From: Elusimicrobiota bacterium
GTDB taxonomy: Bacteria; Elusimicrobiota; Elusimicrobia; FEN-1173
Direction: 5' to 3'
Assembly (NCBI GenBank): GCA_016788905.1
Contig: JAEURZ010000003.1
Span: 39,262-103,261 of the forward strand
DNA length: 64,000 nt
Shown here piece after piece: positions 2,825-52,450 of the stretch (its first letter is position 1; the number at the start of each line of letters is the position of its first letter). A model generated the notes under the pieces. That model made no database searches. It saw nothing but the letters and a program-made list of their open reading frames with translations, and was not told the DNA's origin. The translations under genes were made by a program, and so were the position numbers.

Positions 2825-3778
2825 GTGGGATTCGGTCGTGGGCCGATCGTGGTGAACTACGCTTACGGTCCCAATGAGAATTTGGGAGCGGTCCATCGAA
2901 TGGATGTGGGGTTTCGGTTTGGAAAACCCCTCGGCCGTGAAGTCCAGCGTCGAGCTCTCCTGGAAACGGCCCAATCGGCCTGGGAGAAGGGACAAACGGC
3001 CCATGCGGCGGATCTGTTGGAGGAGATCAATGAATTTTCACCCCACTATTACCCTGCCGAAGTCTTGGGCAAAGAGGTCAATCGGCGAATCGAAGAGAGC
3101 CTCAAACCAGACACCTTGTATAATTTGGGTCTTCGAGCTTATGAGGAAAAAGATTTTGAAGCGGCGGGAGACTATTTAAGAAAACTGGTCATGCTCGATC
3201 CGTCCTACCCGGAGGCGAGCATCCTATTGAAAAAAGCCGAGTCCACGTTGTCCAAGGGAAGAGAGTCCCGGGCGCGGGAAGAATTGGCCCATGGTCTTGA
3301 ACGGCAAAGGAGAGCGCTGTCCCGGACGGCCCAGAAAGCTCAGGAACGGGGACGTTGGTCAGAGGCGCTGAAGAGTTGGCGATATATTTTAGTGCGGTTT
3401 CCGAAAGATGCGGAAGCTTTGGCAAAGGTGATCCAGTGCCGGAGGGAAATGGTGGCCTTGGCGAAATCGGCGGAAAAAGAGGGAGCCATAGAGATGGCGG
3501 TATTCCACTATCGTGCCCTTCAAGAGGACCGGTTCGACCCTGCCGTGTCCCAGCGAATTGAAAAACTGACGCGGGAAGCGACACGGAAAGCCGAAACACG
3601 GGCCCGAGAGCTGTATCAAGAGGGGGTCCGTGTCTATGACGCCGGCGACCTTAAGAAAGCTTTACCCCTCTTTGAGGAATCGGTTCGGTTGAATCCCAAC
3701 GATGAAGCCGCCGCCCGTGCCCGGGACCGGGTTCGAACAGAGACCAAGCGTGGGACCGAAGAGAGGAAAGCCCGATGA
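2825..3778 (+). CDS. TPR-repeat protein; first ~30 aa look like terminal beta-strands of the upstream OMP (possibly one gene interrupted by an in-frame TGA)
   Basis: GTG start immediately after a G8 tract. 'IVVNYAYGPNENLGAVHRMDVGFRF' has an alternating beta-strand pattern ending in F. The remainder is helical and TPR-like ('YNLGLRAYEEKDFEAAGDYLRKLVMLDPSYPEA', 'LYQEGVRVYDAGDLKKALPLFEESVRLNPND'). Same frame as 1904..2812. Confidence 0.5.
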   Translation: MGFGRGPIVVNYAYGPNENLGAVHRMDVGFRFGKPLGREVQRRALLETAQSAWEKGQTAHAADLLEEINEFSPHYYPAEVLGKEVNRRIEESLKPDTLYNLGLRAYEEKDFEAAGDYLRKLVMLDPSYPEASILLKKAESTLSKGRESRAREELAHGLERQRRALSRTAQKAQERGRWSEALKSWRYILVRFPKDAEALAKVIQCRREMVALAKSAEKEGAIEMAVFHYRALQEDRFDPAVSQRIEKLTREATRKAETRARELYQEGVRVYDAGDLKKALPLFEESVRLNPNDEAAARARDRVRTETKRGTEERKAR

Positions 3779-3857: not shown

Positions 3858-5747
3858 GTGATCCTCCGACAAAAATTTTTTTCTGTTTCATCGGTTTTAG
3901 TTTTTTTGGGTTTGTGTCTTGGGACCCTTCCGTTGCGGGGGCAAACGTTTGGAATCGGTGATTTGGATGTTCTAATTGCGACCACAGGAACTTTTATTAA
4001 TCGGGGGATCTGTGCGTCGGGTGGCGATTTTAATCATGATGGGTTTGCGGATGTGGCCATCATCACCTATTCAAACTATGGGGTTGCTCAGGAAATTAAT
4101 TTGTTTCCAGGGGGTCCGAACCTTCCCCCAACAGATACTTTTCCAAATCGAGTGCTCCTGAAGATTGTGCCCCCACCTGTTCCCTTTATCCTTGATCAGA
4201 TTTTGTTTGTTGATTTAAATGGGGACCATTTCGATGATCTTGTATTTAAAGGGTACCGGGTCAACGGGTCCGCCCCTTGGCTGTATACGATTTACGCGGT
4301 ATGGGGTTCGACCACCCCTCCCCTGACCCTCGATTTGAATCAAACTTCAGCGGATCTTGAGTTGAAATTATCCTACTCTCCAACCTTTTGTTCACTTGCC
4401 AAAGGGGATTTCAACGGAGACGGGCGGGGCGATTTAATGGTGAGCGGAGGAGATGCTCTTCAGGGGAATGTTTATCTATTTATGGGAAAACCCTCTTATT
4501 CAAGTTCATCTATTTTCCTGGATGACGGAGTTTCGGCCACCCACATTTATAAAAGTTCAGACACCTTTTTGGGCCAAACCCTGGCGAGTGGTGATATAAA
4601 TGGCGATGGAAAGTCGGACCTGATCCTTTCTGATAAAACTCATTCCAATGGGGCCTCAACGGAGAAGGGAAAGATCTATGTCGTTTTAGGTTCCGCCGGG
4701 TTCCCGACTCAGTGGAATTTGGATACGGAACCTGCCGATTACACTCTTTTCGGAACAAACGCAATAAATAGTCCTGCTGTGGGTGATTGGACGGGTGATG
4801 GCATTGACGATTTGTTCATTTTGGATGAAACGGAACAGAAAGGGTATTTGCTCGATGGTTTAAGTGTCGCCAACGGACCCAGCTCTTTTGATATGACCAC
4901 CGACGTCCCCGCCAACACCCCGATCGCTTTCGGGGATTTTATCTTTGGAATTGGATCTCCTACGGGGGACTTTGATGGGGATGGAAAAGCGGACCTTTTT
5001 TCCCCGGTTCATTCCCAATTGGGGGCATTTTTATCGAACGATTATTCGGGCCAGCCGGTTGTGCCATCCGCGGCTTTTCAATTTTCGGTGACGTCCAGTT
5101 GGAGTCTCGGAGACATCAATGGGGATGGAAAAAAAGATCTCGTGGTGACGCCGGAGGGAGGCCCCAGTGGGAGTGTCGGAATTATTTATGGGTACCACCC
5201 ATTGGATAACCCCGCCATTCACGTTCAAATCCCCATGGCCTTGCCTCAGGCCGTTCTTGAATTGTCCGTTGAAGGGGACCCCAAAGAAATGAACTTGTCC
5301 GGTGATTTTCTGGAAAATACGAACGGCAAATGGGTGCCTTTTCAACGGACGGTGCCGGTGACATTGACTCAAACTTCTGGAGAAAAGCATCTGAGGGTTT
5401 TATTTCGAAATTCCTTTGGGCGGACAAGTTCCTCAGCTGTCCAAAATGTTCTCGTTGAACCGGGTTTCCCGCGTTTGGAGGTCGTGCACAACGATTTTGA
5501 GCTTGGAGGCCCCAAGGTTCGGATCGATTGTCATCTTTTAACGTCGGCGCGGGTGAAAGCTTCCCTGTTTGATCAGGCCGGGGTGTTTTTGGGCCAAATG
5601 ATGGACTCCACCTTGGCCCCGGGGGTATGGCCTATTGAGTGGGACGGAAAAAACTCCACGGGCCAGTCTGTGTCGCCCGGTGTCTATTACATGTCCATTG
5701 ATATAGAGGGTCGGATTGAAAAGAAAAAAATCCTTTTGCGGCATTGA
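3858..5747 (+). CDS. secreted FG-GAP/VCBS-repeat protein with C-terminal FlgD-Ig-like / T9SS-type sorting domain
   Basis: Repeated 'DFNGDGRGDLMV', 'DINGDGKSDLIL', 'DFDGDGKADLF', 'DINGDGKKDLVV' (FG-GAP Ca-binding loops). C-terminus 'VKASLFDQAGVFLGQMMDSTLAPGVWPIEWDGKNSTGQSVSPGVYYMSIDIEG' resembles the FlgD Ig-like / Por secretion tail. Signal peptide 'KFFSVSSVLVFLGLCLGTLPLRG'. Start is tentative: in-frame GTG at 3858. The ORF-track ATG at 3702 overlaps the previous gene. Confidence 0.6.
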   Translation: MILRQKFFSVSSVLVFLGLCLGTLPLRGQTFGIGDLDVLIATTGTFINRGICASGGDFNHDGFADVAIITYSNYGVAQEINLFPGGPNLPPTDTFPNRVLLKIVPPPVPFILDQILFVDLNGDHFDDLVFKGYRVNGSAPWLYTIYAVWGSTTPPLTLDLNQTSADLELKLSYSPTFCSLAKGDFNGDGRGDLMVSGGDALQGNVYLFMGKPSYSSSSIFLDDGVSATHIYKSSDTFLGQTLASGDINGDGKSDLILSDKTHSNGASTEKGKIYVVLGSAGFPTQWNLDTEPADYTLFGTNAINSPAVGDWTGDGIDDLFILDETEQKGYLLDGLSVANGPSSFDMTTDVPANTPIAFGDFIFGIGSPTGDFDGDGKADLFSPVHSQLGAFLSNDYSGQPVVPSAAFQFSVTSSWSLGDINGDGKKDLVVTPEGGPSGSVGIIYGYHPLDNPAIHVQIPMALPQAVLELSVEGDPKEMNLSGDFLENTNGKWVPFQRTVPVTLTQTSGEKHLRVLFRNSFGRTSSSAVQNVLVEPGFPRLEVVHNDFELGGPKVRIDCHLLTSARVKASLFDQAGVFLGQMMDSTLAPGVWPIEWDGKNSTGQSVSPGVYYMSIDIEGRIEKKKILLRH

Positions 5748-45765: not shown

Positions 45766-46023
45766 ATGAACAAAGCGGACCTGGTGAAAATGGTAGCGAA
45801 GGACGTGGGCAATTTAATGGAAGCGAAATCGGCGGTGACGCATATGTTTGAAGGGATGGCGAAGGCCCTCCAGGAGGGGAACAAAGTCGTGGTGCAGGGG
45901 TTTGGGAGTTTTCACGTGGTGATGCGAAAAAGCAAGCCGGCCCGCAACCCTCGGACGGGTACGCCCGTGATCATTCCTCCCCGGCGGCGGATTAAATTTA
46001 AAATGGCGAAAGGACTTCTTTGA
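45766..46023 (+). CDS. hup: DNA-binding protein HU
   Basis: 'MNKADLVKMVAK...GFGSFHVVMRKSKPARNPRTGTPVIIPPRRRIKFKMAKGL'. Confidence 0.9.
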   Translation: MNKADLVKMVAKDVGNLMEAKSAVTHMFEGMAKALQEGNKVVVQGFGSFHVVMRKSKPARNPRTGTPVIIPPRRRIKFKMAKGLL

Positions 46024-46030
46024 CGAAGTC

Positions 46031-46066
46031 CTCCTTCCGTCGATCAGGGCGGAGGATTTATTGATT
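46031..46066 (+). terminator. possible intrinsic terminator after HU gene
   Basis: Imperfect hairpin 'cctccttccg...cgggcggagg' followed by 'tttatt'. Confidence 0.3.
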
Positions 46067-46098
46067 TCTGGTTCGGCTTGTGGTATATTGGCCGTCCC

Positions 46099-46479
46099 AT
46101 GCTCTTGAGTCTACCGACGGATCAGGAGTTCTTCTCCATCGGCGAAGTGAGTCGACTCACGGGCCTGAAGTCGCACGTTTTGCGGTATTGGGAGTCAGCC
46201 GCTGGTGTGGTGCGTCCTGCCCGTCGAGGGTCGGGGCATCGGCGTTTTTCCCGAAAAGATGTGGAAGGGCTTCTTCGTGTCCAGGAGTTGGTCCGGGACC
46301 GCGGGCTGACTCTGGCGGGGGCCAAGAAACATTTACGGGCCGAAGCGAAACGGGGGCCCCTGCAGATCTCTTTAGCGCTGAGCGATTCCTCGGCCGCTGT
46401 GTCCACGCTAAAAGATGTTCGATCGGATTTGGCGGCACTCGTCAAAGATTTGAAAGCGAGGACCGATAGCCTTCGTTGA
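46099..46479 (+). CDS. MerR-family transcriptional regulator
   Basis: HTH 'FFSIGEVSRLTGLKSHVLRYWESAAGVVRPARRGSGHRRFSRKDVEGL'. Confidence 0.75.
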   Translation: MLLSLPTDQEFFSIGEVSRLTGLKSHVLRYWESAAGVVRPARRGSGHRRFSRKDVEGLLRVQELVRDRGLTLAGAKKHLRAEAKRGPLQISLALSDSSAAVSTLKDVRSDLAALVKDLKARTDSLR

Positions 46480-46520
46480 AGGTGTCGGAGAGTTGGTTTT
46501 AATTGTTCAGTCCGAGACAC

Positions 46521-46592
46521 CGGGGCGTAGCGTAGTGGTAGCGCACTCGCTTGGGGTGCGAGAGGTCGTGGGTTCAAGTCCCACCGCCCCGA
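46521..46592 (+). tRNA. tRNA-Pro (anticodon GGG)
   Basis: Cloverleaf by hand: acceptor CGGGGCG/CGCCCCG, anticodon stem CTCGC/GCGAG, loop TTGGGGT, T-arm GTGGG-TTCAAGT-CCCAC, discriminator A; no encoded CCA. Confidence 0.85.
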
Positions 46593-46695
46593 TGTGTCGG
46601 ACTGAAACGTGGTGTAAAAATAAAAAGGTGGCGGTTTTTTTATTCCAAGCTCCGTTGTCCCGCTTAGGCCTACACGGTCCCCGTCGTTCTCTCCT

Positions 46696-47874
46696 GTGAA
46701 CCCACAGGCACGGATTCTCTTTTGTTATATTTCCCACGCCAGTGGACACCAGCGGGCCGCGGACGCGGTGATGGGGGTGTTGCGGCGACGTCGGCCGCCG
46801 GTCTCTTGCGAGGGAATTCACTCCATCAATTATTCCAATCCCGTTTTTGGGAAGATTATTTCCAAACTTTATATTCAATTGCTGAAAATGGTTCCCCAGG
46901 TGTGGGACTATTTGTATGACAACCCCTATGTTGAAAAAGCGACTCGGGATCTCCGCGAGTTTATTGGACTTTTCAATACCCGACGCATCACCGAACTTCT
47001 ACGAAAATATCGTCCCAGTTGTTTGGTGTGCACTCAGGCGGTTCCCGCGGGATTGTTGTCGGCAATGAAAGAACGGGGGCTTATTAACGTTCCCCTGGTG
47101 GGCATTATTACCGATTTCGGTGTTCACAAATATTGGATTTCTTCTCAGGTGGATCTTTATCTGGTGCCTTCCAACGAAGTCCGTCGACGGATGATGCGGT
47201 TGGGGGTCTCGGAAGACCGTATTCGAGTGACGGGAATCCCTGTGGACCTTCATTTTGCGCAGCGTCTCGATCGGAGAGCGGCACGAGCGGCCCTGGGGCT
47301 TGGCACTCGGGATCCCCTGATTTTAGTGATGGGCGGTAACTACGGGTTGGGGCCCTTGGAAGACGCCGTCAACGCGTTGCGTCGTATTCCCCTAGGGTTT
47401 CAATTGGTGGTTGTTTGTGGGAACAACCGGTCACTCCTCCGACGGATGACACGCTATTTTGCGGGGGACCGACGCGTTCGGATTTTAGGACACACCCGTA
47501 CGGTTCATCGGCTGATGGGGGCGGCTGATTTGCTGATTTCCAAGCCTGGGGGATTGACCACGTCGGAAGCCTTGGCCCAAGGACTCCCTATGGTGATGAT
47601 AGAACCGATCCCAGGTCAAGAAGAACGGAACGCCACGTATCTCCTTCGACACGGAGCGGCAATTCGGGCTGACACATTGGATGAATTGGTCGAGGTGGTG
47701 AGTCACTTATTTTTGGAGCCTGCTCGCTTGGATCGCTTGAGGGAAAGTGGGGCCCGCTTAGCTCGCCCTTGGGCGGCTCGGGACGCGGCCGATGCGATTC
47801 TTTCTCTGGTGAGCAGTGATCGGGATAGTCCTCCCCGTGCTGTGGGGCGGCGGGTTTCATCGGCGTTCACGTGA
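46696..47874 (+). CDS. MGDG-synthase-like glycosyltransferase (GT28-type diacylglycerol glycosyltransferase)
   Basis: N-terminal 'ILFCYISHASGHQRAADAV' (MGDG_synth domain), C-terminal GT28 'GGNYGLGPLE...SKPGGLTTSEALAQGLPMV'; GTG start. Confidence 0.75.
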   Translation: MNPQARILFCYISHASGHQRAADAVMGVLRRRRPPVSCEGIHSINYSNPVFGKIISKLYIQLLKMVPQVWDYLYDNPYVEKATRDLREFIGLFNTRRITELLRKYRPSCLVCTQAVPAGLLSAMKERGLINVPLVGIITDFGVHKYWISSQVDLYLVPSNEVRRRMMRLGVSEDRIRVTGIPVDLHFAQRLDRRAARAALGLGTRDPLILVMGGNYGLGPLEDAVNALRRIPLGFQLVVVCGNNRSLLRRMTRYFAGDRRVRILGHTRTVHRLMGAADLLISKPGGLTTSEALAQGLPMVMIEPIPGQEERNATYLLRHGAAIRADTLDELVEVVSHLFLEPARLDRLRESGARLARPWAARDAADAILSLVSSDRDSPPRAVGRRVSSAFT

Positions 47875-48701
47875 GTCGAGAATTTTTTTGGGCGTTGGGG
47901 CTTTCTCTTTCCAGCCGTGTTGCGGCGGCCTTGCCTCCTTCTTTGCGTTACCGTTGGGCGTCCGGCCTGGGGAGGGGGATGCGGAAATTGTTTGCAACAA
48001 AATCCGATGCGGTGAGAAAGAACATCGAACGTATGAACGCTTTCTATGGCACGCGGTTTCAGGTGGATCGGGTGTTTGAAAATTTTGGCGTGACATTGGC
48101 TGATTTTTTAGGCCGACAAAAAGTTACTATATCGGTCGAGGGCCGCGATCAGGCCGAGGCGGTCCGCGCTCGTGGGCGTGGGGCCATTCTCTTGACGACG
48201 CACTTAGGTAATTGGGAGATGGGGGGGCGTGTTGTCGCGGAGTGGGGGTGGCCTGTGACGGCCGTGTTTCAGCCCTATCGATCCCGTGCCATGCAACATT
48301 TTATTCAGTCTCGGAGGCCGTCGGGGTTTTCGTATCTGGCGGTGGGGCGGGGGGCCGCTCACGGAATTGCCAAAGCCCTGCGACGGAGAGAGACGGTCGC
48401 CATGTTGGGGGACCGTCCTTTTGGGGAGGATGGTGGTCGGGTTTCCCTTTGTGGAAGCGAGATTCGTCTCCCCCGCGGACCATTCCTTTTTGCAAGTCGC
48501 CTGGGGTGTCCGATCCTTCCCGGGTTCGCTCTCATGGATCGACCGGGCCACTACCGGGTTGTTGTGGAGGGTCCTTTATGGCCGGAAGGCCCCGACCCTG
48601 TTCAGAATCTTATGGACAAGATGGCCCAAGTATTGGGAAAATACGTTGCCACTCATGGTGACCAATGGTATTGCTTCGAGCCGTTGTGGGAAAACCAATA
48701 A
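47871..48701 (+). CDS. lysophospholipid/lipid-A-type acyltransferase (LpxL/HtrB family)
   Basis: 'ILLTTHLGNWEMGG' (HX4D-variant acyltransferase motif); GTGA overlap with the upstream glycosyltransferase. Confidence 0.75.
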   Translation: MSREFFWALGLSLSSRVAAALPPSLRYRWASGLGRGMRKLFATKSDAVRKNIERMNAFYGTRFQVDRVFENFGVTLADFLGRQKVTISVEGRDQAEAVRARGRGAILLTTHLGNWEMGGRVVAEWGWPVTAVFQPYRSRAMQHFIQSRRPSGFSYLAVGRGAAHGIAKALRRRETVAMLGDRPFGEDGGRVSLCGSEIRLPRGPFLFASRLGCPILPGFALMDRPGHYRVVVEGPLWPEGPDPVQNLMDKMAQVLGKYVATHGDQWYCFEPLWENQ

Positions 48702-48708
48702 AGTCTGA

Positions 48709-48756
48709 ACGGAAGGCGGGCGGAAACATTAATTTACGGGGTGTAGCGCAGTTGGG
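48709..48756 (+). repeat. direct repeat A1: upstream flank plus 5' 19 nt of tRNA-Pro(CGG), duplicated
   Basis: 'aacggaaggcgggcgga...ttacggggtgtagcgcagttgg' recurs at 48855-48902, differing only in a ~9-nt central patch. Confidence 0.6.
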
Positions 48757-48854
48757 TCCCGTGTGCCGAGTAGGGCACACGATTGGGACGACCGGCTTTA
48801 GCCGGGCCGGCCTGGAACCCCTGTGTGAGGGTTGGAAGGCGCGCTTGGTTCGAA

Positions 48855-48902
48855 AACGGAAGGCGGGCGGAGGTAGTGATTTACGGGGTGTAGCGCAGTT
48901 GG
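48855..48902 (+). repeat. direct repeat A2 (authentic copy running into tRNA-Pro(CGG))
   Basis: Same sequence as A1; the 98-nt spacer 48757-48854 carries the hairpin 'cgtgtgccgagtagggcacacg'. Confidence 0.6.
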
Positions 48903-48956
48903 TAGCGCGCTTGGTTCGGGACCAAGAGGTCCGGGGTTCAAGTCCCCGCACCCCGA
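48884..48956 (+). tRNA. tRNA-Pro (anticodon CGG)
   Basis: Acceptor CGGGGTG/CACCCCG, D-arm GCGC-AGTTGGTA-GCGC, anticodon stem CTTGG/CCAAG with loop TTCGGGA, T-arm CGGGG-TTCAAGT-CCCCG, discriminator A. Confidence 0.85.
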
Positions 48957-48964
48957 TTTTTAAG
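48944..48964 (+). repeat. att-like 21-bp direct repeat, copy 1 (tRNA 3' end + 8 nt)
   Basis: 'ccccgcaccccgatttttaag' is repeated perfectly at 49145-49165. Confidence 0.65.
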
Positions 48965-49144
48965 TTAGGTGATGTTCATCACTGCGATCGGTTCGTTTTG
49001 GGGGTTGGTGGAAGTCGTTCGTTGCACTTACCGCGGGACCCGGGGCCTGTTCGGCCCGTCGTAAACGTCCCCTTTGGGGCCGGCCGCTGTTCGCGGCGTG
49101 CCAAACGTGTGCCACTGGCACACGGCACCCACAGGCACCCACGA

Positions 49145-49165
49145 CCCCGCACCCCGATTTTTAAG
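49145..49165 (+). repeat. att-like 21-bp direct repeat, copy 2
   Basis: Perfect copy of the tRNA-Pro(CGG) 3' end plus flank, 180 bp downstream of copy 1. The intervening segment carries the palindrome 'gtgtgccactggcacac'. Confidence 0.65.
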
Positions 49166-49172
49166 GGAAAAG

Positions 49173-49448
49173 ATGCTTAGTCGTCGGCGATGGCGATTTG
49201 ATGGGCGGGTTCAGGGGGTCGGTTTTCGGGCCTTTTGTGAGGAAGCGGCTCTTTCTCGCGGAATTCGGGGGTGGGTCCGTAACGAATTTGACGGGTCGGT
49301 TTCCCTTGAAGCGGAAGGGGAGGTGGACGTCTTGGCGGACCTTCTAAATCATGTCCGAACCTCTCACCTGCTGGCGCGTGTGGATCGCACTGAGGAGATT
49401 CCATTAACACCCAAGAATGATCCCGCGGAGATGTTTATCATTCGATGA
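49173..49448 (+). CDS. acyP: acylphosphatase
   Basis: 'WRFDGRVQGVGFRAFCEEAALSRGIRGWVRNEFDGSVSLEAEGE'; the ATG at 49173 is internal to the longer ORF-track ORF. Confidence 0.85.
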   Translation: MLSRRRWRFDGRVQGVGFRAFCEEAALSRGIRGWVRNEFDGSVSLEAEGEVDVLADLLNHVRTSHLLARVDRTEEIPLTPKNDPAEMFIIR

Positions 49449-49560
49449 ATCCTTCCGGTTCTAACGAGCCGCATTTTTTTATGTTGGCAAGGGATCGGGG
49501 TTTGTGTAGGTGGTTCTGGCGAATTTTTTGGGTTGAGGCGATTTGAAGGAGATCACCGGA

Positions 49561-50391
49561 ATGGCGGAAAGTTTGGATGCGGTTACGCTCTACTTTCATG
49601 GGGTTAAGCGTCTTCAGGATGTGTCCAAAGAAGACGTGACTGAATTGTGGCGCCGAGCCAAAAAAGGCGATAAGAAATCCAAGAAACGGTTGGTCGAATC
49701 AAATTTACGATTGGTGATTCCTGTCGCCAAGAAATATTTTCGTTCCGGGGTTGATTTTATCGACCTCATTATGGAAGGGAATTTGGGTTTGATGCACGCG
49801 GTCGATAAATTTGATCCCAAACGAGGGTTTCGATTTTCGACCTACGCGTCGTATTGGATCGAGCAATCGATTCGTCGGGCTTACGATGAACAATCAAAAT
49901 TGATTCGTATACCGCCCCACGCGCTGGAAGCCCTTCGTCGGTGGTTAAGAGAATGGGAGCGGTTGAGGGTTGAACACGGTCGGAGCCCGACCATTCAAGA
50001 AATGGGAAAAAAACTCTCACTTTCCCCGAGGCAAATTCGCAGCGTTGTGGACGCTCATGAAGCGGCCAGGCCTGTGGGGAGCCTGGATATGCCGTTGGAT
50101 GAAGACGAAAACCTTTTTATTCGCGACATGGTGAGTGATCGGCCGGATCAGGGGCCGGAACGTATTTTTTCACTTCTCCGGGATCGGAGTGATGTGGCCA
50201 CCGCCCTCAGGGGGGTCAGCCAACGGGAGAGATCTATTTTGGAAATGCGTTATGGTGTGACGGGAAAAGAGCCCATGACATTAGAAGAGGTGGGAAAAAA
50301 AATGCGAATCTCCCGGGAACGGGTTCGCCAATTGGAAGAACGCGCGATGGCGCGGCTGCGTCGCGTGAGTCACCGAATGGGGCTGCGGTGA
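49561..50391 (+). CDS. RNA polymerase sigma-70-family sigma factor (alternative, group 2/3-like; no region 1.1)
   Basis: Region 2 'DLIMEGNLGLMHAVDKFDPKRGFRFSTYASYWIEQSIRRAY'; region 4 'LEEVGKKMRISRERVRQLEERAMARLRR'. Start at 49561 (RBS 'gaaggag' 7 nt upstream) preferred over the in-frame ATG at 49543. Confidence 0.8.
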   Translation: MAESLDAVTLYFHGVKRLQDVSKEDVTELWRRAKKGDKKSKKRLVESNLRLVIPVAKKYFRSGVDFIDLIMEGNLGLMHAVDKFDPKRGFRFSTYASYWIEQSIRRAYDEQSKLIRIPPHALEALRRWLREWERLRVEHGRSPTIQEMGKKLSLSPRQIRSVVDAHEAARPVGSLDMPLDEDENLFIRDMVSDRPDQGPERIFSLLRDRSDVATALRGVSQRERSILEMRYGVTGKEPMTLEEVGKKMRISRERVRQLEERAMARLRRVSHRMGLR

Positions 50392-50930
50392 CATCGGTTT
50401 CCTCCGCTCTCCCCGTGGATTTGCGGTCTCTTATTCGAGACATTCCGGATTTCCCCAAGAAAGGAATTGTTTTTAAGGACATCACGCCTCTCCTGGGGGA
50501 CGGACCGGCGTTTGCCCATTCGATTGATCTCTTGGCGAAGGTGGGAGAACGGCATCGTGTTGACAAAGTGATTTCCATTGAATCCCGAGGGTTTATCTTT
50601 GGATCGGCGGTGGCTTGTCGATTGGGTGTTGGGCTGGTTCCTGTCCGAAAAAAAGGACGACTGCCCTATCAGACGATTTCCGCCCGTTACGCGTTGGAAT
50701 ACGGGGAAGACACGTTGCAAATGCATGTGGACGCTCTTCGCCCAAACGAACGCGTCATTGTTGTTGACGATGTGTTGGCCACAGGGGGAACCGCAGGGGC
50801 GGTAGCGCGGCTGGTGGCCGAAGCGGGCGGCCTCGTGATGGGAGCGGCCTTTGCGATCGAGCTGAATTTCTTAAAGGGACGTGAACGGTTGAGTGGATTT
50901 GAGGTGGTGTCTCTCATTCAATACGATTGA
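50388..50930 (+). CDS. apt: adenine phosphoribosyltransferase
   Basis: 'DFPKKGIVFKDITPLLGD', PRPP motif 'VIVVDDVLATGGTAGA'; GTG start in a GTGA overlap with the sigma-factor stop. Confidence 0.9.
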   Translation: MTSVSSALPVDLRSLIRDIPDFPKKGIVFKDITPLLGDGPAFAHSIDLLAKVGERHRVDKVISIESRGFIFGSAVACRLGVGLVPVRKKGRLPYQTISARYALEYGEDTLQMHVDALRPNERVIVVDDVLATGGTAGAVARLVAEAGGLVMGAAFAIELNFLKGRERLSGFEVVSLIQYD

Positions 50931-50967
50931 CTTCTTTTCTGTTGGAATAGGGTCGTTTTCCGCCCAA

Positions 50968-51041
50968 GCCTCCGTAGCTCAATTGGATAGAGCGGCTCCG
51001 TCCTAAGGAGAAGGTTGGTGGTTCAAGTCCGCCCGGGGGCG
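50968..51041 (+). tRNA. tRNA-Arg (anticodon CCT)
   Basis: Acceptor GCCTCCG/CGGGGGC (one G-U), D-arm GCTC-AATTGGATA-GAGC, anticodon loop GTCCTAA, T-arm GGTGG-TTCAAGT-CCGCC, discriminator G. Confidence 0.85.
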
Positions 51042-51087
51042 TGGGCGGAAAATGAGTGGATCAATACGATCAAAGGGTGGGCTCTTT

Positions 51088-51789
51088 ATGTCATCAAATA
51101 TTTTCTCATTGCCGGGCCGTGCTCACGTGCCGGTGACCAAAGGCGAAAAAGTGGCGCAGTGGATCGTGACGCATCGGGCCCAATTGGGCTTGGCTCTCGT
51201 TACGCTCATTTTGGCGGGGGGCCTCGCGGGCCTCATTGTGGTGAATCGAAAAAAGCTTCAGGAAGGGGGAATCCTTCAGCTGGCGAAGGCCCGTTATCAG
51301 GCCTCCCAGGGGGCAATGAAAGAGGCTTTGGGGGCCATTGACGAAGTCATCAATACCCAACGAACGAACGCCGTGGGGATGCAGGCCTATATTTTAAAAG
51401 GGGACATTTTGTTCAGCGACCGAAAGTTCGAAGAGGCCGCAAAAAATTATCGCGCAGGATTTGGTCAAGCGTCGCTCCCCGCTTACAAGGTGTTGATGTT
51501 GGCCGGACAGGCTTCTTCTGCTGTGGAACTTCAGCAGTACAAGGAAGCCATTGGGTTTTATGACCAATTGGTTCGGGACTACCCGGATCATTTCCTTGTC
51601 CCCCGGGCGTATATGGAGCTCGGTCGATTGCATTCCGCTCTTCAGCAATGGGCGGAGGCGAAAGTCTCTTACGAAAGGCTCCTCACTCTTTACTCCAAGT
51701 CCCCTTGGGCGGTTGAGGCTGAAGTGAATCTCGCGGCTGTCGCGGCGAAGCTGCCTTCTGAAAGGCCGGTTCCTGAACCGATCAAATAA
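51088..51789 (+). CDS. membrane-anchored TPR-like protein (YfgM/UPF0070-like)
   Basis: N-terminal TM 'LGLALVTLILAGGLAGLIVV' followed by helical repeats ('AYILKGDILFSDRKFEEAAKNYRAGF', 'AYMELGRLHSALQQWAEAKVSYERLL'). Confidence 0.55.
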   Translation: MSSNIFSLPGRAHVPVTKGEKVAQWIVTHRAQLGLALVTLILAGGLAGLIVVNRKKLQEGGILQLAKARYQASQGAMKEALGAIDEVINTQRTNAVGMQAYILKGDILFSDRKFEEAAKNYRAGFGQASLPAYKVLMLAGQASSAVELQQYKEAIGFYDQLVRDYPDHFLVPRAYMELGRLHSALQQWAEAKVSYERLLTLYSKSPWAVEAEVNLAAVAAKLPSERPVPEPIK

Positions 51790-51811
51790 ATAAATGAGAG
51801 TGAGAACACCA

Positions 51812-51840
51812 TTGACAGAGACGTTTGGTTCTGTTAGTAT
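51812..51840 (+). promoter_or_regulatory. sigma70-type promoter of the infC-rpmI-rplT operon (TTGACA-N17-TAGTAT)
   Basis: Consensus -35 hexamer with 17-nt spacer and near-consensus -10, read directly; 115 nt upstream of infC. Confidence 0.45.
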
Positions 51841-51858
51841 GACACCGCAACACGACGC

Positions 51859-51887
51859 AGGGGCGGACTTCCTCCCCTGTTATTTTT
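51859..51887 (+). terminator. leader hairpin + U-tract (candidate L20-responsive attenuator / ribosomal-protein leader)
   Basis: 'aggggcgg-actt-cctcccct' stem-loop followed by 'gttattttt', located between the promoter and infC. Confidence 0.4.
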
Positions 51888-51955
51888 AGGAGACAACGAG
51901 CATCTACCCTAAACCTTTTACGCGGCCTCCAGTAGGAAATACCAGTGGACCGCGA

Positions 51956-52450
51956 GTGAATAACCAAATACGGTCTCAGCAGGTCCGTCTCATTGATGAG
52001 GATGGAACCCAGTTGGGAATCAAAAACCTGGATGAGGCCATTCGCACGGCCCAAGACAGAGGGAAGGATTTAGTTGAGGTCGCCCCCCTGGCAAATCCCC
52101 CGGTGTGTAAAGTGGTGGACTTCTCCAAGTATCGCTACGAAAAAGAGAAGCAAAAGAAAGAAGCGAAAAAGCACGCGAAGGGTGGCCAGGTTAAAGAAGT
52201 TCGGTTTCGGCCCCGTATTGGGGAGCATGATTTTGATACGAAACTAAGGTCCATTCAAAAGTTTTTAGATGGGCGGGATAAGGTGCGTATTACCGTGATG
52301 TTCCGCGGGCGGGAAATGGAACACAAAGATTTGGGCCATAAAATCATTGAACGGATCAAGGGTATTTTGGGCGAAGCGGCCACGGTGGAATCTTCCCCAA
52401 CGATGTTCGGGAACCGGATGATCCTGATGTTGGCCCCCCAGAAAAAGTAG
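51956..52450 (+). CDS. infC: translation initiation factor IF-3
   Basis: 'IRSQQVRLIDEDGTQLGIKNLDEAIRTAQDRGKDLVEVAPLANPPVCKVVDFSKYRYE'; non-ATG (GTG) start as usual for infC. Confidence 0.9.
   Translation: MNNQIRSQQVRLIDEDGTQLGIKNLDEAIRTAQDRGKDLVEVAPLANPPVCKVVDFSKYRYEKEKQKKEAKKHAKGGQVKEVRFRPRIGEHDFDTKLRSIQKFLDGRDKVRITVMFRGREMEHKDLGHKIIERIKGILGEAATVESSPTMFGNRMILMLAPQKK

Follow-up and report, generated by a model that had tools for sequence, protein, structure and literature searches.

The Escherichia coli tyrT operon is the described system closest to the locus examined here. In it, rtT is reported to be one repeat unit (PMC3318445, after Bosl and Kersten, 1991); a connection with the stringent response has been proposed, and the mode of action is described as unknown. 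We checked the tyrT/tyrV architecture directly on E. coli K-12 (NC_000913), where the tyrV trailer, a region annotated rttR/tpr, contains 178-nt units that each end in AATCCTTCCCCCACCACCA followed by TCACTTTCAAAAG. One such unit folds with a 10-bp closing helix (GGGGAAGGAU/AUCCUUCCCC) in which the tRNA-derived strand is used. Regulatory RNA can also come from the spacer of a tRNA precursor, as with 3'ETS-leuZ, which serves as an Hfq-dependent sponge and is no repeat of tRNA fragments.

Direct repeats of a tRNA 3' end are usually read as proof of integration, and CIMEs and their accretion are established concepts (PMC5704250). Here we compare a repeat of this kind in Elusimicrobiota with its counterparts in relatives. 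We consider it probable that the repeat is a tRNA-derived trailer repeat which encodes a selected structured RNA, is vertically inherited, and is gained and lost by unequal recombination, rather than a remnant of an integrated element.

The duplicated tRNA-Pro(CGG) end and its surroundings

The window (the whole stretch of 64,000 nucleotides analyzed) comes from an uncultured Elusimicrobiota bacterium and carries, in local order, gpsA, HU, MerR, tRNA-Pro(GGG), MGDG synthase, an LpxL-like acyltransferase, tRNA-Pro(CGG), acyP, a sigma factor, apt, tRNA-Arg(CCT), and infC. A preliminary description had pointed to perfect 21-bp direct repeats of the tRNA-Pro(CGG) 3' end around a palindromic segment and had taken them for the signature of site-specific integration, probably left by a decayed integrative element or a small non-autonomous one. 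The repeats themselves are real (Table 1). The 21-mer, CCCCGCACCCCGATTTTTAAG, has exactly two copies in the 64-kb window with up to three mismatches allowed, where 100 shuffles led us to expect none by chance. It joins the last 13 nt of the tRNA, as delimited by ARAGORN and Rfam, to an 8-nt trailer, TTTTTAAG. The repeat period is 201 bp, the enclosed segment is 180 bp, and the second copy stands just before acyP, ending 8 nt ahead of its ATG. Similarity around the repeats reaches 26 nt (48939-48964 and 49140-49165, 92% identical), which the preliminary description had not mentioned. The other features that it listed are likewise present: a perfect palindrome, GTGTGCC-ACT-GGCACAC, at 49107-49123; two occurrences of GGCACCCA, at 49124 and 49134; and, in the upstream spacer, a related hairpin, GTGTGCC-GAGTAG-GGCACAC, at 48761-48780.

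Table 1. Positions of the features discussed, in the window and, for the Y family, in the loci of relatives.
Feature	Locus	Position	Strand	Basis
Leader copy 1 (AACGGAAGGCGGGCGG...ATTTA), duplicate of 48855-48883	Window	48708..48736	+	Repeat search
Pseudo-tRNA 5' fragment, tRNA-Pro(CGG) nt 1-19, CGGGGTGTAGCGCAGTTGG	Window	48737..48755	+	Repeat search
Structured insert, 83 nt, at D-loop position	Window	48756..48838	+	Inverted repeats, fold
Pseudo-tRNA fragment, tRNA nt 22-35, GCGCGCTTGGTTCG, ends inside anticodon loop	Window	48839..48852	+	100% identical to 48905-48918
Leader copy 2, leader of live tRNA-Pro(CGG)	Window	48855..48883	+	Repeat search
tRNA-Pro(CGG), functional, no CCA encoded	Window	48884..48956	+	ARAGORN; Rfam RF00005, 71.2 bits
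Direct repeat copy 1: tRNA last 13 nt + trailer TTTTTAAG	Window	48944..48964	+	Repeat search
Trailer unit, fast-evolving 5' part	Window	48965..49029	+	Identity comparison among relatives
Trailer unit, conserved structured core	Window	49030..49157	+	Covariance model R1, covariation, folds
P1 5' strand GCGGG	Window	49033-49037	+	
P2 GGGCC-TGTTC-GGCCC	Window	49043-49057	+	
Lineage-specific insertion in core	Window	about 49068-49097	+	
P3 hairpin GTGCC-AAAC-GTGTGCC-ACT-GGCACAC-GGCAC	Window	49098-49128	+	
P1 3' strand CCCGC, inside tRNA-derived CCCCGCACCCCGA (49145-49157)	Window	49146-49150	+	
Direct repeat copy 2: tRNA 3' end copy + trailer copy	Window	49145..49165	+	Repeat search
acyP (acylphosphatase), first downstream gene	Window	49174..49448	+	PF00708
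Y unit	L006	2600-2800		
Y unit	L007	2556-2810		
Y unit	L132	1100-1300		
Y unit	L133	1097-1300		
Y unit	L014	2552-2670		
Y unit	L009	5342-5490		

A simple promoter and terminator scan found no terminator at tRNA-Pro(CGG) or at the unit end, and one weak promoter-like site, inside the acyltransferase gene. At this site (window 49158-49176) and at the orthologous ones, acyP starts 8-25 nt past the 3' end of the tRNA or unit. Most species have little or no Shine-Dalgarno sequence before it (e.g., CCCCGATTTTTGCATG). Together, the short distance and the scarcity of Shine-Dalgarno sequences suggest a tRNA-mRNA co-transcript in which the 5' end of the acyP mRNA would be made by tRNA 3' processing.

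The spacer upstream of tRNA-Pro(CGG), on which the preliminary description had not commented beyond its hairpin, duplicates part of the tRNA 5' half along with the leader (48708-48755 and 48855-48902 match at 90% in the window repeat search). The 19-nt fragment CGGGGTGTAGCGCAGTTGG recurs unchanged in the orthologous units upstream of the gene in L005, L132, L006, L135, and L007. It is followed by an insert whose first hairpin, bulged (GTCCC-GTGTGCC-GAGTAG-GGCACAC-GATT-GGGAC, 48756-48789), is an inverted copy of the P3 hairpin of the downstream unit; two further hairpins come after it. The covariance model of the downstream core (R1, below) matches this region on the minus strand (48754-48819, 21.8 bits), and the orthologous inserts of L005 and L132 show compensatory stem changes. 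The best explanation of 48737-48852 would be a mirror-image partial duplication that carries an inverted copy of the unit hairpin. Pseudo-halves that embrace a live gene also brought to mind a split or intron-containing tRNA. We rejected this candidate because the halves lack the 3' strand of the anticodon stem and the variable loop, and because the upstream half is missing in many unit-bearing genomes.

Occupancy of the site among relatives

Using the acyltransferase as an anchor, we gathered about 25 informative loci. Over the locus, two conspecific contigs (L001, L002) do not differ from the window. The unit occupies one syntenic site in about ten Elusimicrobiota species, with neighboring acyltransferases 61-100% identical. 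It is found throughout two sister clades, clade I (window, L127, L130, L132, L133, L135/L006, L007, and L005) and clade II (L049, L051, L137-139, and L141-144), between which acyltransferase identity is 62-86%; a range of 62-83% was obtained among the unit-bearing loci. The only apparent losses are in clade I: L052, which has an empty site, and L133, which has only a truncated remnant. The site is also empty in distant relatives (L008/L048, L010, L011, L012, and L050; 52-61% identity), where the tRNA follows the acyltransferase by 12-28 nt and acyP comes directly next. The junction sequence expected at a site with no unit is GTTCAAGTCCCCGCACCCCGATTTTTAAGGGAA.

Most genomes, including the window, contain one unit, while tandem arrays of two are found in L006 and L007 and of three in L005. 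Because L135 and L006 are 99% identical at the DNA level and yet have one and two units, respectively, copy number is polymorphic within a species, as would be expected if the repeats recombine unequally. The empty alleles and further copies that the preliminary description had asked for exist in relatives. The cognate integrase that it proposed to look for was not found within about 4-6 kb in any of the about 25 loci.

The sequence that flanks the units also varies with the host. In clade I, a T-run follows the tRNA and every unit. In clade II, the tRNA and units are followed by the trailer GAGACACCCG..., a sequence complementary to the 5' leader of the same clade (GGGTGTGTCTC). The repeated flank is each species' own tRNA trailer, which is the pattern of in-situ tandem duplication and not of an imported attP.

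These comparisons bear directly on the possibility that a tyrosine recombinase integrated an element into the tRNA-Pro(CGG) 3' end and that its interior was later deleted, leaving attL and attR around about 180 bp. A CIME-like version of this reading has an integrase encoded elsewhere that may still mobilize the element, with tandem copies arising by accretion. In its favor, a duplicated tRNA 3' end is the classical sign of integration, and empty sites in relatives and tandem arrays both occur. However, all of the about 25 loci lack an integrase within about 4-6 kb and have housekeeping genes as neighbors, none contains a full-size element at tRNA-Pro(CGG), and the sequences that would have to be remnants (130-230 bp, at two tRNA genes) have no full-size counterpart anywhere. 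A gene downstream of the tRNA in L015 was considered as a possible integrase, but its translation, judged by eye, is unlike a recombinase. Two IMG/VR scans, one for the hairpin plus 3' fragment and one for the P2-P3 core, gave no matches. An exact-pattern scan of metagenome contigs for the core gave no match but carries no weight, since the collection apparently lacks even the conspecific JGI contig. The unit has occupied one site since before the divergence of species whose neighboring proteins are 62% identical. Its distribution throughout two sister clades, with an interior core conserved with covariation, is not patchy or host-independent. The repeated flank follows the host's own trailer, including the leader-complementary sequence of clade II, and the compensatory evolution of stems in the core is not something that arm-type protein-binding sites require. 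We consider an att scar or CIME-like element very unlikely. From the preliminary description we retain the derivation of the repeat from the tRNA 3' end and a discrete unit that is present, absent, or multiplied, but the vertical inheritance, structural selection, own-trailer flank, and lack of an integrase within about 4-6 kb speak against its reading as a signature of site-specific integration. The decayed integrative element is likewise not supported, with a 3' core under structural selection instead of decay, no integrase within that distance, and no copy in the IMG/VR scans. An IS200/IS605-like element was considered separately, prompted by a TTAC just left of the core. It was rejected because clade II has TTGAC or TCGAC at this position, each unit has one hairpin, and there is no TnpA.

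The two ends of the unit evolve at different rates. Between most species, the 5' part of about 75 nt is 41-65% identical, against a shuffled expectation of 47%, whereas the 3' part of about 70 nt is 80-100% identical. For the window, the 5' part (48965-49029) is 79% identical to that of L130, 58-65% to those of other clade I members, and 49-52% to those of clade II. A tpr-like small ORF was rejected as a candidate product since this part is not conserved. The 5' part of the window unit is thus nearest to that of L130 and not to that of its sister, L127, and this incongruence between unit and species similarity fits an ancestral array in which paralogous units underwent birth and death. L132, L005, and L006 share a 100% identical alpha-type core despite acyltransferases that are only 72-83% identical, and this could reflect transfer rather than constraint.

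A second family of units, Y, was found after tRNA-Pro(GGG) in L006, L007, L132, L133, and L014, and after tRNA-Pro(CGG) in L009 (Table 1). It has no Rfam match and is absent after the window's own tRNA-Pro(GGG). Each Y unit consists of GTGGGACTT, a structured multi-hairpin insert of about 100 nt, and AAGTCCCACCGCCCCGA with the trailer. The helix that closes it consists of the tRNA T-stem with 4 bp added (GTGGGACTT/AAGTCCCAC) and covaries with the species' own tRNA (GGTGGGAATT/AATTCCCACC in L014), and eight compensatory pairs were counted among five sequences. The identity block of Y-type units begins in the T-loop (17 nt). Such a start is typical of integrases that cross over in the T-loop, and in this respect Y lends the att reading some support.

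Several further observations were made at these loci. Upstream of the live tRNA-Pro(CGG) gene of L009 (4860-5268) are two tandem, nearly full-length pseudo-copies, each interrupted precisely in the T-loop by a multi-hairpin insert of about 140 nt and each with its acceptor 3' strand broken; one of them scores 28.3 bits against the Rfam tRNA model, just below threshold. The leader (GTCCGAGACA, 46511-46520) and trailer (TGTGTCGGAC, 46593-46602) of the window's tRNA-Pro(GGG) are complementary at 9 of 10 positions, which extends the acceptor stem by about 10 bp. Leader and trailer also pair around tRNA-Pro(CGG) in L008/L048 (CCGGATC/GATCCGG), L010, L011, L012, L050, and all clade II loci, and this pairing may form a processing stem. 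L133 and L134 have an unrelated MITE-like insertion upstream of the tRNA, about 30-130 nt past the acyltransferase stop, with terminal inverted repeats of about 29 bp (CGTCATCCCGGCGAAAGCCGGGATCCAGT ... ACTGGATCCCGGCTTTCGCCGGGATGACG).

Two other observations concern variation among close relatives. Two independent short-read assemblies of the window's species (Logan contigs L003 and L004, whose position 1 is window position 49137) are interrupted within the unit at the GGCACCCAC tandem, 37 nt short of acyP. These breaks may be a result of unit-level heterogeneity or of repeat collapse in those populations. L141, L142, L144, L051, and L143 share an identical acyltransferase protein and differ at the tRNA-derived 3' end of the unit (about 3540-3560), with GCGCCCCCGCCCCCCGA in the first four and GCGACCCCGCACCCCGA in L143. 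Two recent A-to-C changes would account for this difference, or else a tract of gene conversion by the live tRNA.

The folded core and its possible origins

The conserved 3' part of the unit folds into a three-way junction, which was recovered independently by RNAalifold from 13 cores. It comprises P1 (GCGGG/CCCGC), whose 3' strand lies within the tRNA-derived 13-mer; P2 (GGGCC-UGUUC-GGCCC); and P3, a hairpin of 12 bp in which a conserved AAAC bulge separates the outer stem (5 bp) from the inner one (7 bp), which is capped by an ACU loop. The tail that follows is single-stranded and made of ACCCCGA, the copy of the acceptor 3' strand, and the trailer. In the core alignment 98.6% of cells are paired. 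Compensatory changes affect four pairs and 18 cells, a level reached by 0 of 500 shuffles, and sliding the 3' partners by 1-3 columns lowers pairing to 31-49%. The inner stem occurs as GTGTGCC, GGGTGCC, GCGCGCC, and GAGCGCC, each with its complement, and the outer stem varies as GTCCA/TGGAC, GTCGC/GCGAC, and GTCGT/ACGAC. All six one-sided changes give G.U on the plus strand and none gives A.C, which argues for selection on a plus-strand RNA and not on duplex DNA or the minus strand. We also considered the palindrome as a protein-binding DNA site and rejected this because stem positions 2 and 4 change only in compensatory fashion.

In canonical cores, the three-way junction is the dominant minimum-free-energy fold (ensemble frequency 0.4-0.9, z-scores -2.3 to -4.2). 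A covariance model of the core, R1, scores 60-109 bits on every unit and has no match in 497 kb from other phyla. On the window unit (49021-49164, plus strand) it scores 73.7 bits (E = 4e-18), compared with about 100 elsewhere. The window copy is, judging from the modeled fold, a derived variant in which P1 and P3 are intact, P2 is remodeled, and an insertion of about 30-40 nt with extra hairpins separates P2 from P3. Its hairpin seems nested in the remains of another (GTCGTAAACG ... GGCACCCACGA). Given the internal insertion and lower score, the unit may be partly degenerate. An Rfam E-value search of window positions 46000-52000 and the loci of five relatives returned tRNAs only, and the core (model R1) and the Y family are candidate RNA motifs outside Rfam.

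The position of this junction, ending 8-25 nt before the acyP start with conserved unpaired nucleotides and, in clade I, a T-run after it, could be expected of a cis-regulatory leader of the acyP-sigma factor-apt operon, such as an attenuator or a riboswitch-like three-way junction. The same module, however, stands before tRNA-Arg in L050 and before the MGDG-synthase gene in L007, and relatives with an empty site retain the same operon. Tandem arrays of two to three units would be unusual for a riboswitch, there is no Rfam match, and the T-run lies 7 nt from the nearest helix, with no terminator predicted. A leader function appears highly improbable.

The P2+P3 portion (about 48 nt, here X) also occurs outside the unit. 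The main rival to a trailer repeat takes X as a small mobile or copy-pasted hairpin element, MITE/REP-like, driven by single-stranded DNA hairpins, or spread by template switching, that targets the loops of redundant tRNA copies and tRNA flanks. On this view, the fragments of tRNA are pseudogenes in decay, and conservation stems from recent spread and not from a host function. X occupies the T-loop position of the downstream unit and, inverted, the D-loop position of the upstream pseudo-half (window, L005, and L132; partially in L006, L135, and L007). Inverted, it is a clean 49-nt insertion in the tRNA-Pro(GGG) Y unit of L007 relative to L006. The hairpin-within-hairpin appearance of the window unit, the fully identical core of three species, and the tRNA copies of L009, with a different 140-nt insert exactly in the T-loop, can be read in the same way. 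In L050, where the tRNA-Pro(CGG) site is empty, two tandem modules in plus orientation with a 59-nt period lie directly at the 5' end of tRNA-Arg(CCT) (3860-3990). Judged from where these copies lie, X has evidently moved or been copied between tRNA flanks.

Against this, X has only two copies in the 64-kb window, and all 24 of the perfect-stem hairpins in 202 kb of Elusimicrobiota DNA are next to tRNA genes, so X is not a dispersed REP-like family. It has no terminal inverted repeats, target-site duplication, or transposase. The ACT loop and the AAAC bulge are conserved in plus-oriented copies, while in inverted ones nothing but the stem is. This indicates sequence-specific selection in the plus orientation. 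The one-sided changes, moreover, are all G.U in the transcribed sense. We consider X as a mobile element unlikely. The small non-autonomous element of the preliminary description thus survives for this hairpin module alone, copies of which, in either orientation, lie at further tRNA flanks. A broader proposal, that X, Y (about 100 nt), and the 140-nt insert of L009 are undescribed tRNA-loop modules that propagate into the T- and D-loop positions of tRNA copies and into tRNA flanks, seems to us quite unlikely. If true, it would mean a miniature mobile element specific to tRNA, or an RNA derived from tRNA that propagates itself, by a mechanism in which no adjacent recombinase is needed.

The trailer repeat that we favor would have begun as a partial tandem duplication of the 3' portion of tRNA-Pro(CGG) with its trailer, and would since have been inherited vertically at one site in an Elusimicrobiota clade. 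Comparison between genomes shows this probable origin and the dynamics that followed, in which unequal homologous recombination, or slippage, between the duplicated tRNA-end and trailer stretches would add and remove units. We infer the transcription, processing, and function of the unit. It would be co-transcribed with the tRNA on the plus strand, as the one-sided G.U changes suggest. Its 3' part of about 70 nt would form the selected junction with a single-stranded tail, and the unit would present the 3' end of the tRNA and its trailer signals again just before acyP. By analogy with E. coli tyrT/rtT, the unit would most likely yield a stable by-product RNA through processing, serve between the tRNA and acyP as a buffer for termination or processing, or do both. 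Several observations run counter to this reading. The window unit may be partly degenerate, the fully identical alpha-type core of three species could be due to transfer, and the simple scan predicted no terminator where the unit ends. The inversion of the P2+P3 module and its occurrence at other tRNA flanks (the tRNA-Pro(GGG) unit of L007 and upstream of tRNA-Arg in L050) are not explained by pure in-situ duplication, and L052 is empty although it is among the unit-bearing species of clade I.

Comparison with known systems

The unit shares with CIME remnants a segment bounded by direct repeats of a tRNA 3' end, absent in some relatives and capable of forming tandem arrays (PMC5704250). It differs in its size of 130-230 bp, lack of a recombinase, vertical inheritance, structurally selected core, and use of the host's own trailer as the flank. 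The same signature that usually stands for integration would here come from a conserved, structured in-situ trailer repeat, and because such a repeat mimics an att signature, island-finding pipelines would miscall the unit as an att scar.

Like REP, BIME, and REPIN sequences, the hairpins are short, GC-rich, imperfect, bulged palindromes in both orientations and sometimes in tandem. Unlike them, they have only tRNA-adjacent copies (in 202 kb), are embedded in a larger conserved junction with tRNA-derived strands, and were seen with no RAYT gene. The unit would also resemble 3'ETS-leuZ in being a functional RNA cut from the transcribed spacer of a tRNA precursor, with the difference that nothing indicates base-pairing targets for it.

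The likeness to tyrT/rtT is the most extensive. In both cases, tandem units of variable copy number directly follow a tRNA gene on its 3' side, oriented as the gene is, and each ends with the tRNA 3' end (19 nt of it in E. coli and 13 nt in Elusimicrobiota) copied together with the trailer. In both, the closing helix pairs the tRNA-derived T-stem strand with a complementary 5' segment and leaves the acceptor 3' strand as a tail. There is, however, no sequence homology (the Rfam rtT model, RF00391, has no match in the Elusimicrobiota loci) and no conserved tpr-like small ORF in the Elusimicrobiota unit. The Elusimicrobiota core is a compact 70-nt junction conserved across a deep clade rather than in one species group, and some genomes have a mirror-image 5' pseudo-half upstream. 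The Elusimicrobiota unit is, in addition, known from its sequence, with its transcription and processing inferred. By these comparisons, the unit is best described as an analogue, and not a homologue, of the E. coli tyrT/rtT repeats. As a candidate new RNA motif, the Elusimicrobiota trailer repeat joins a known but obscure kind. The enigmatic tyrT/rtT architecture thereby gains a second example that is phylogenetically remote, far better sampled, and backed by covariation. This suggests that trailer RNAs derived from tRNAs recur as a solution, possibly a functional one, and are not a peculiarity of E. coli.
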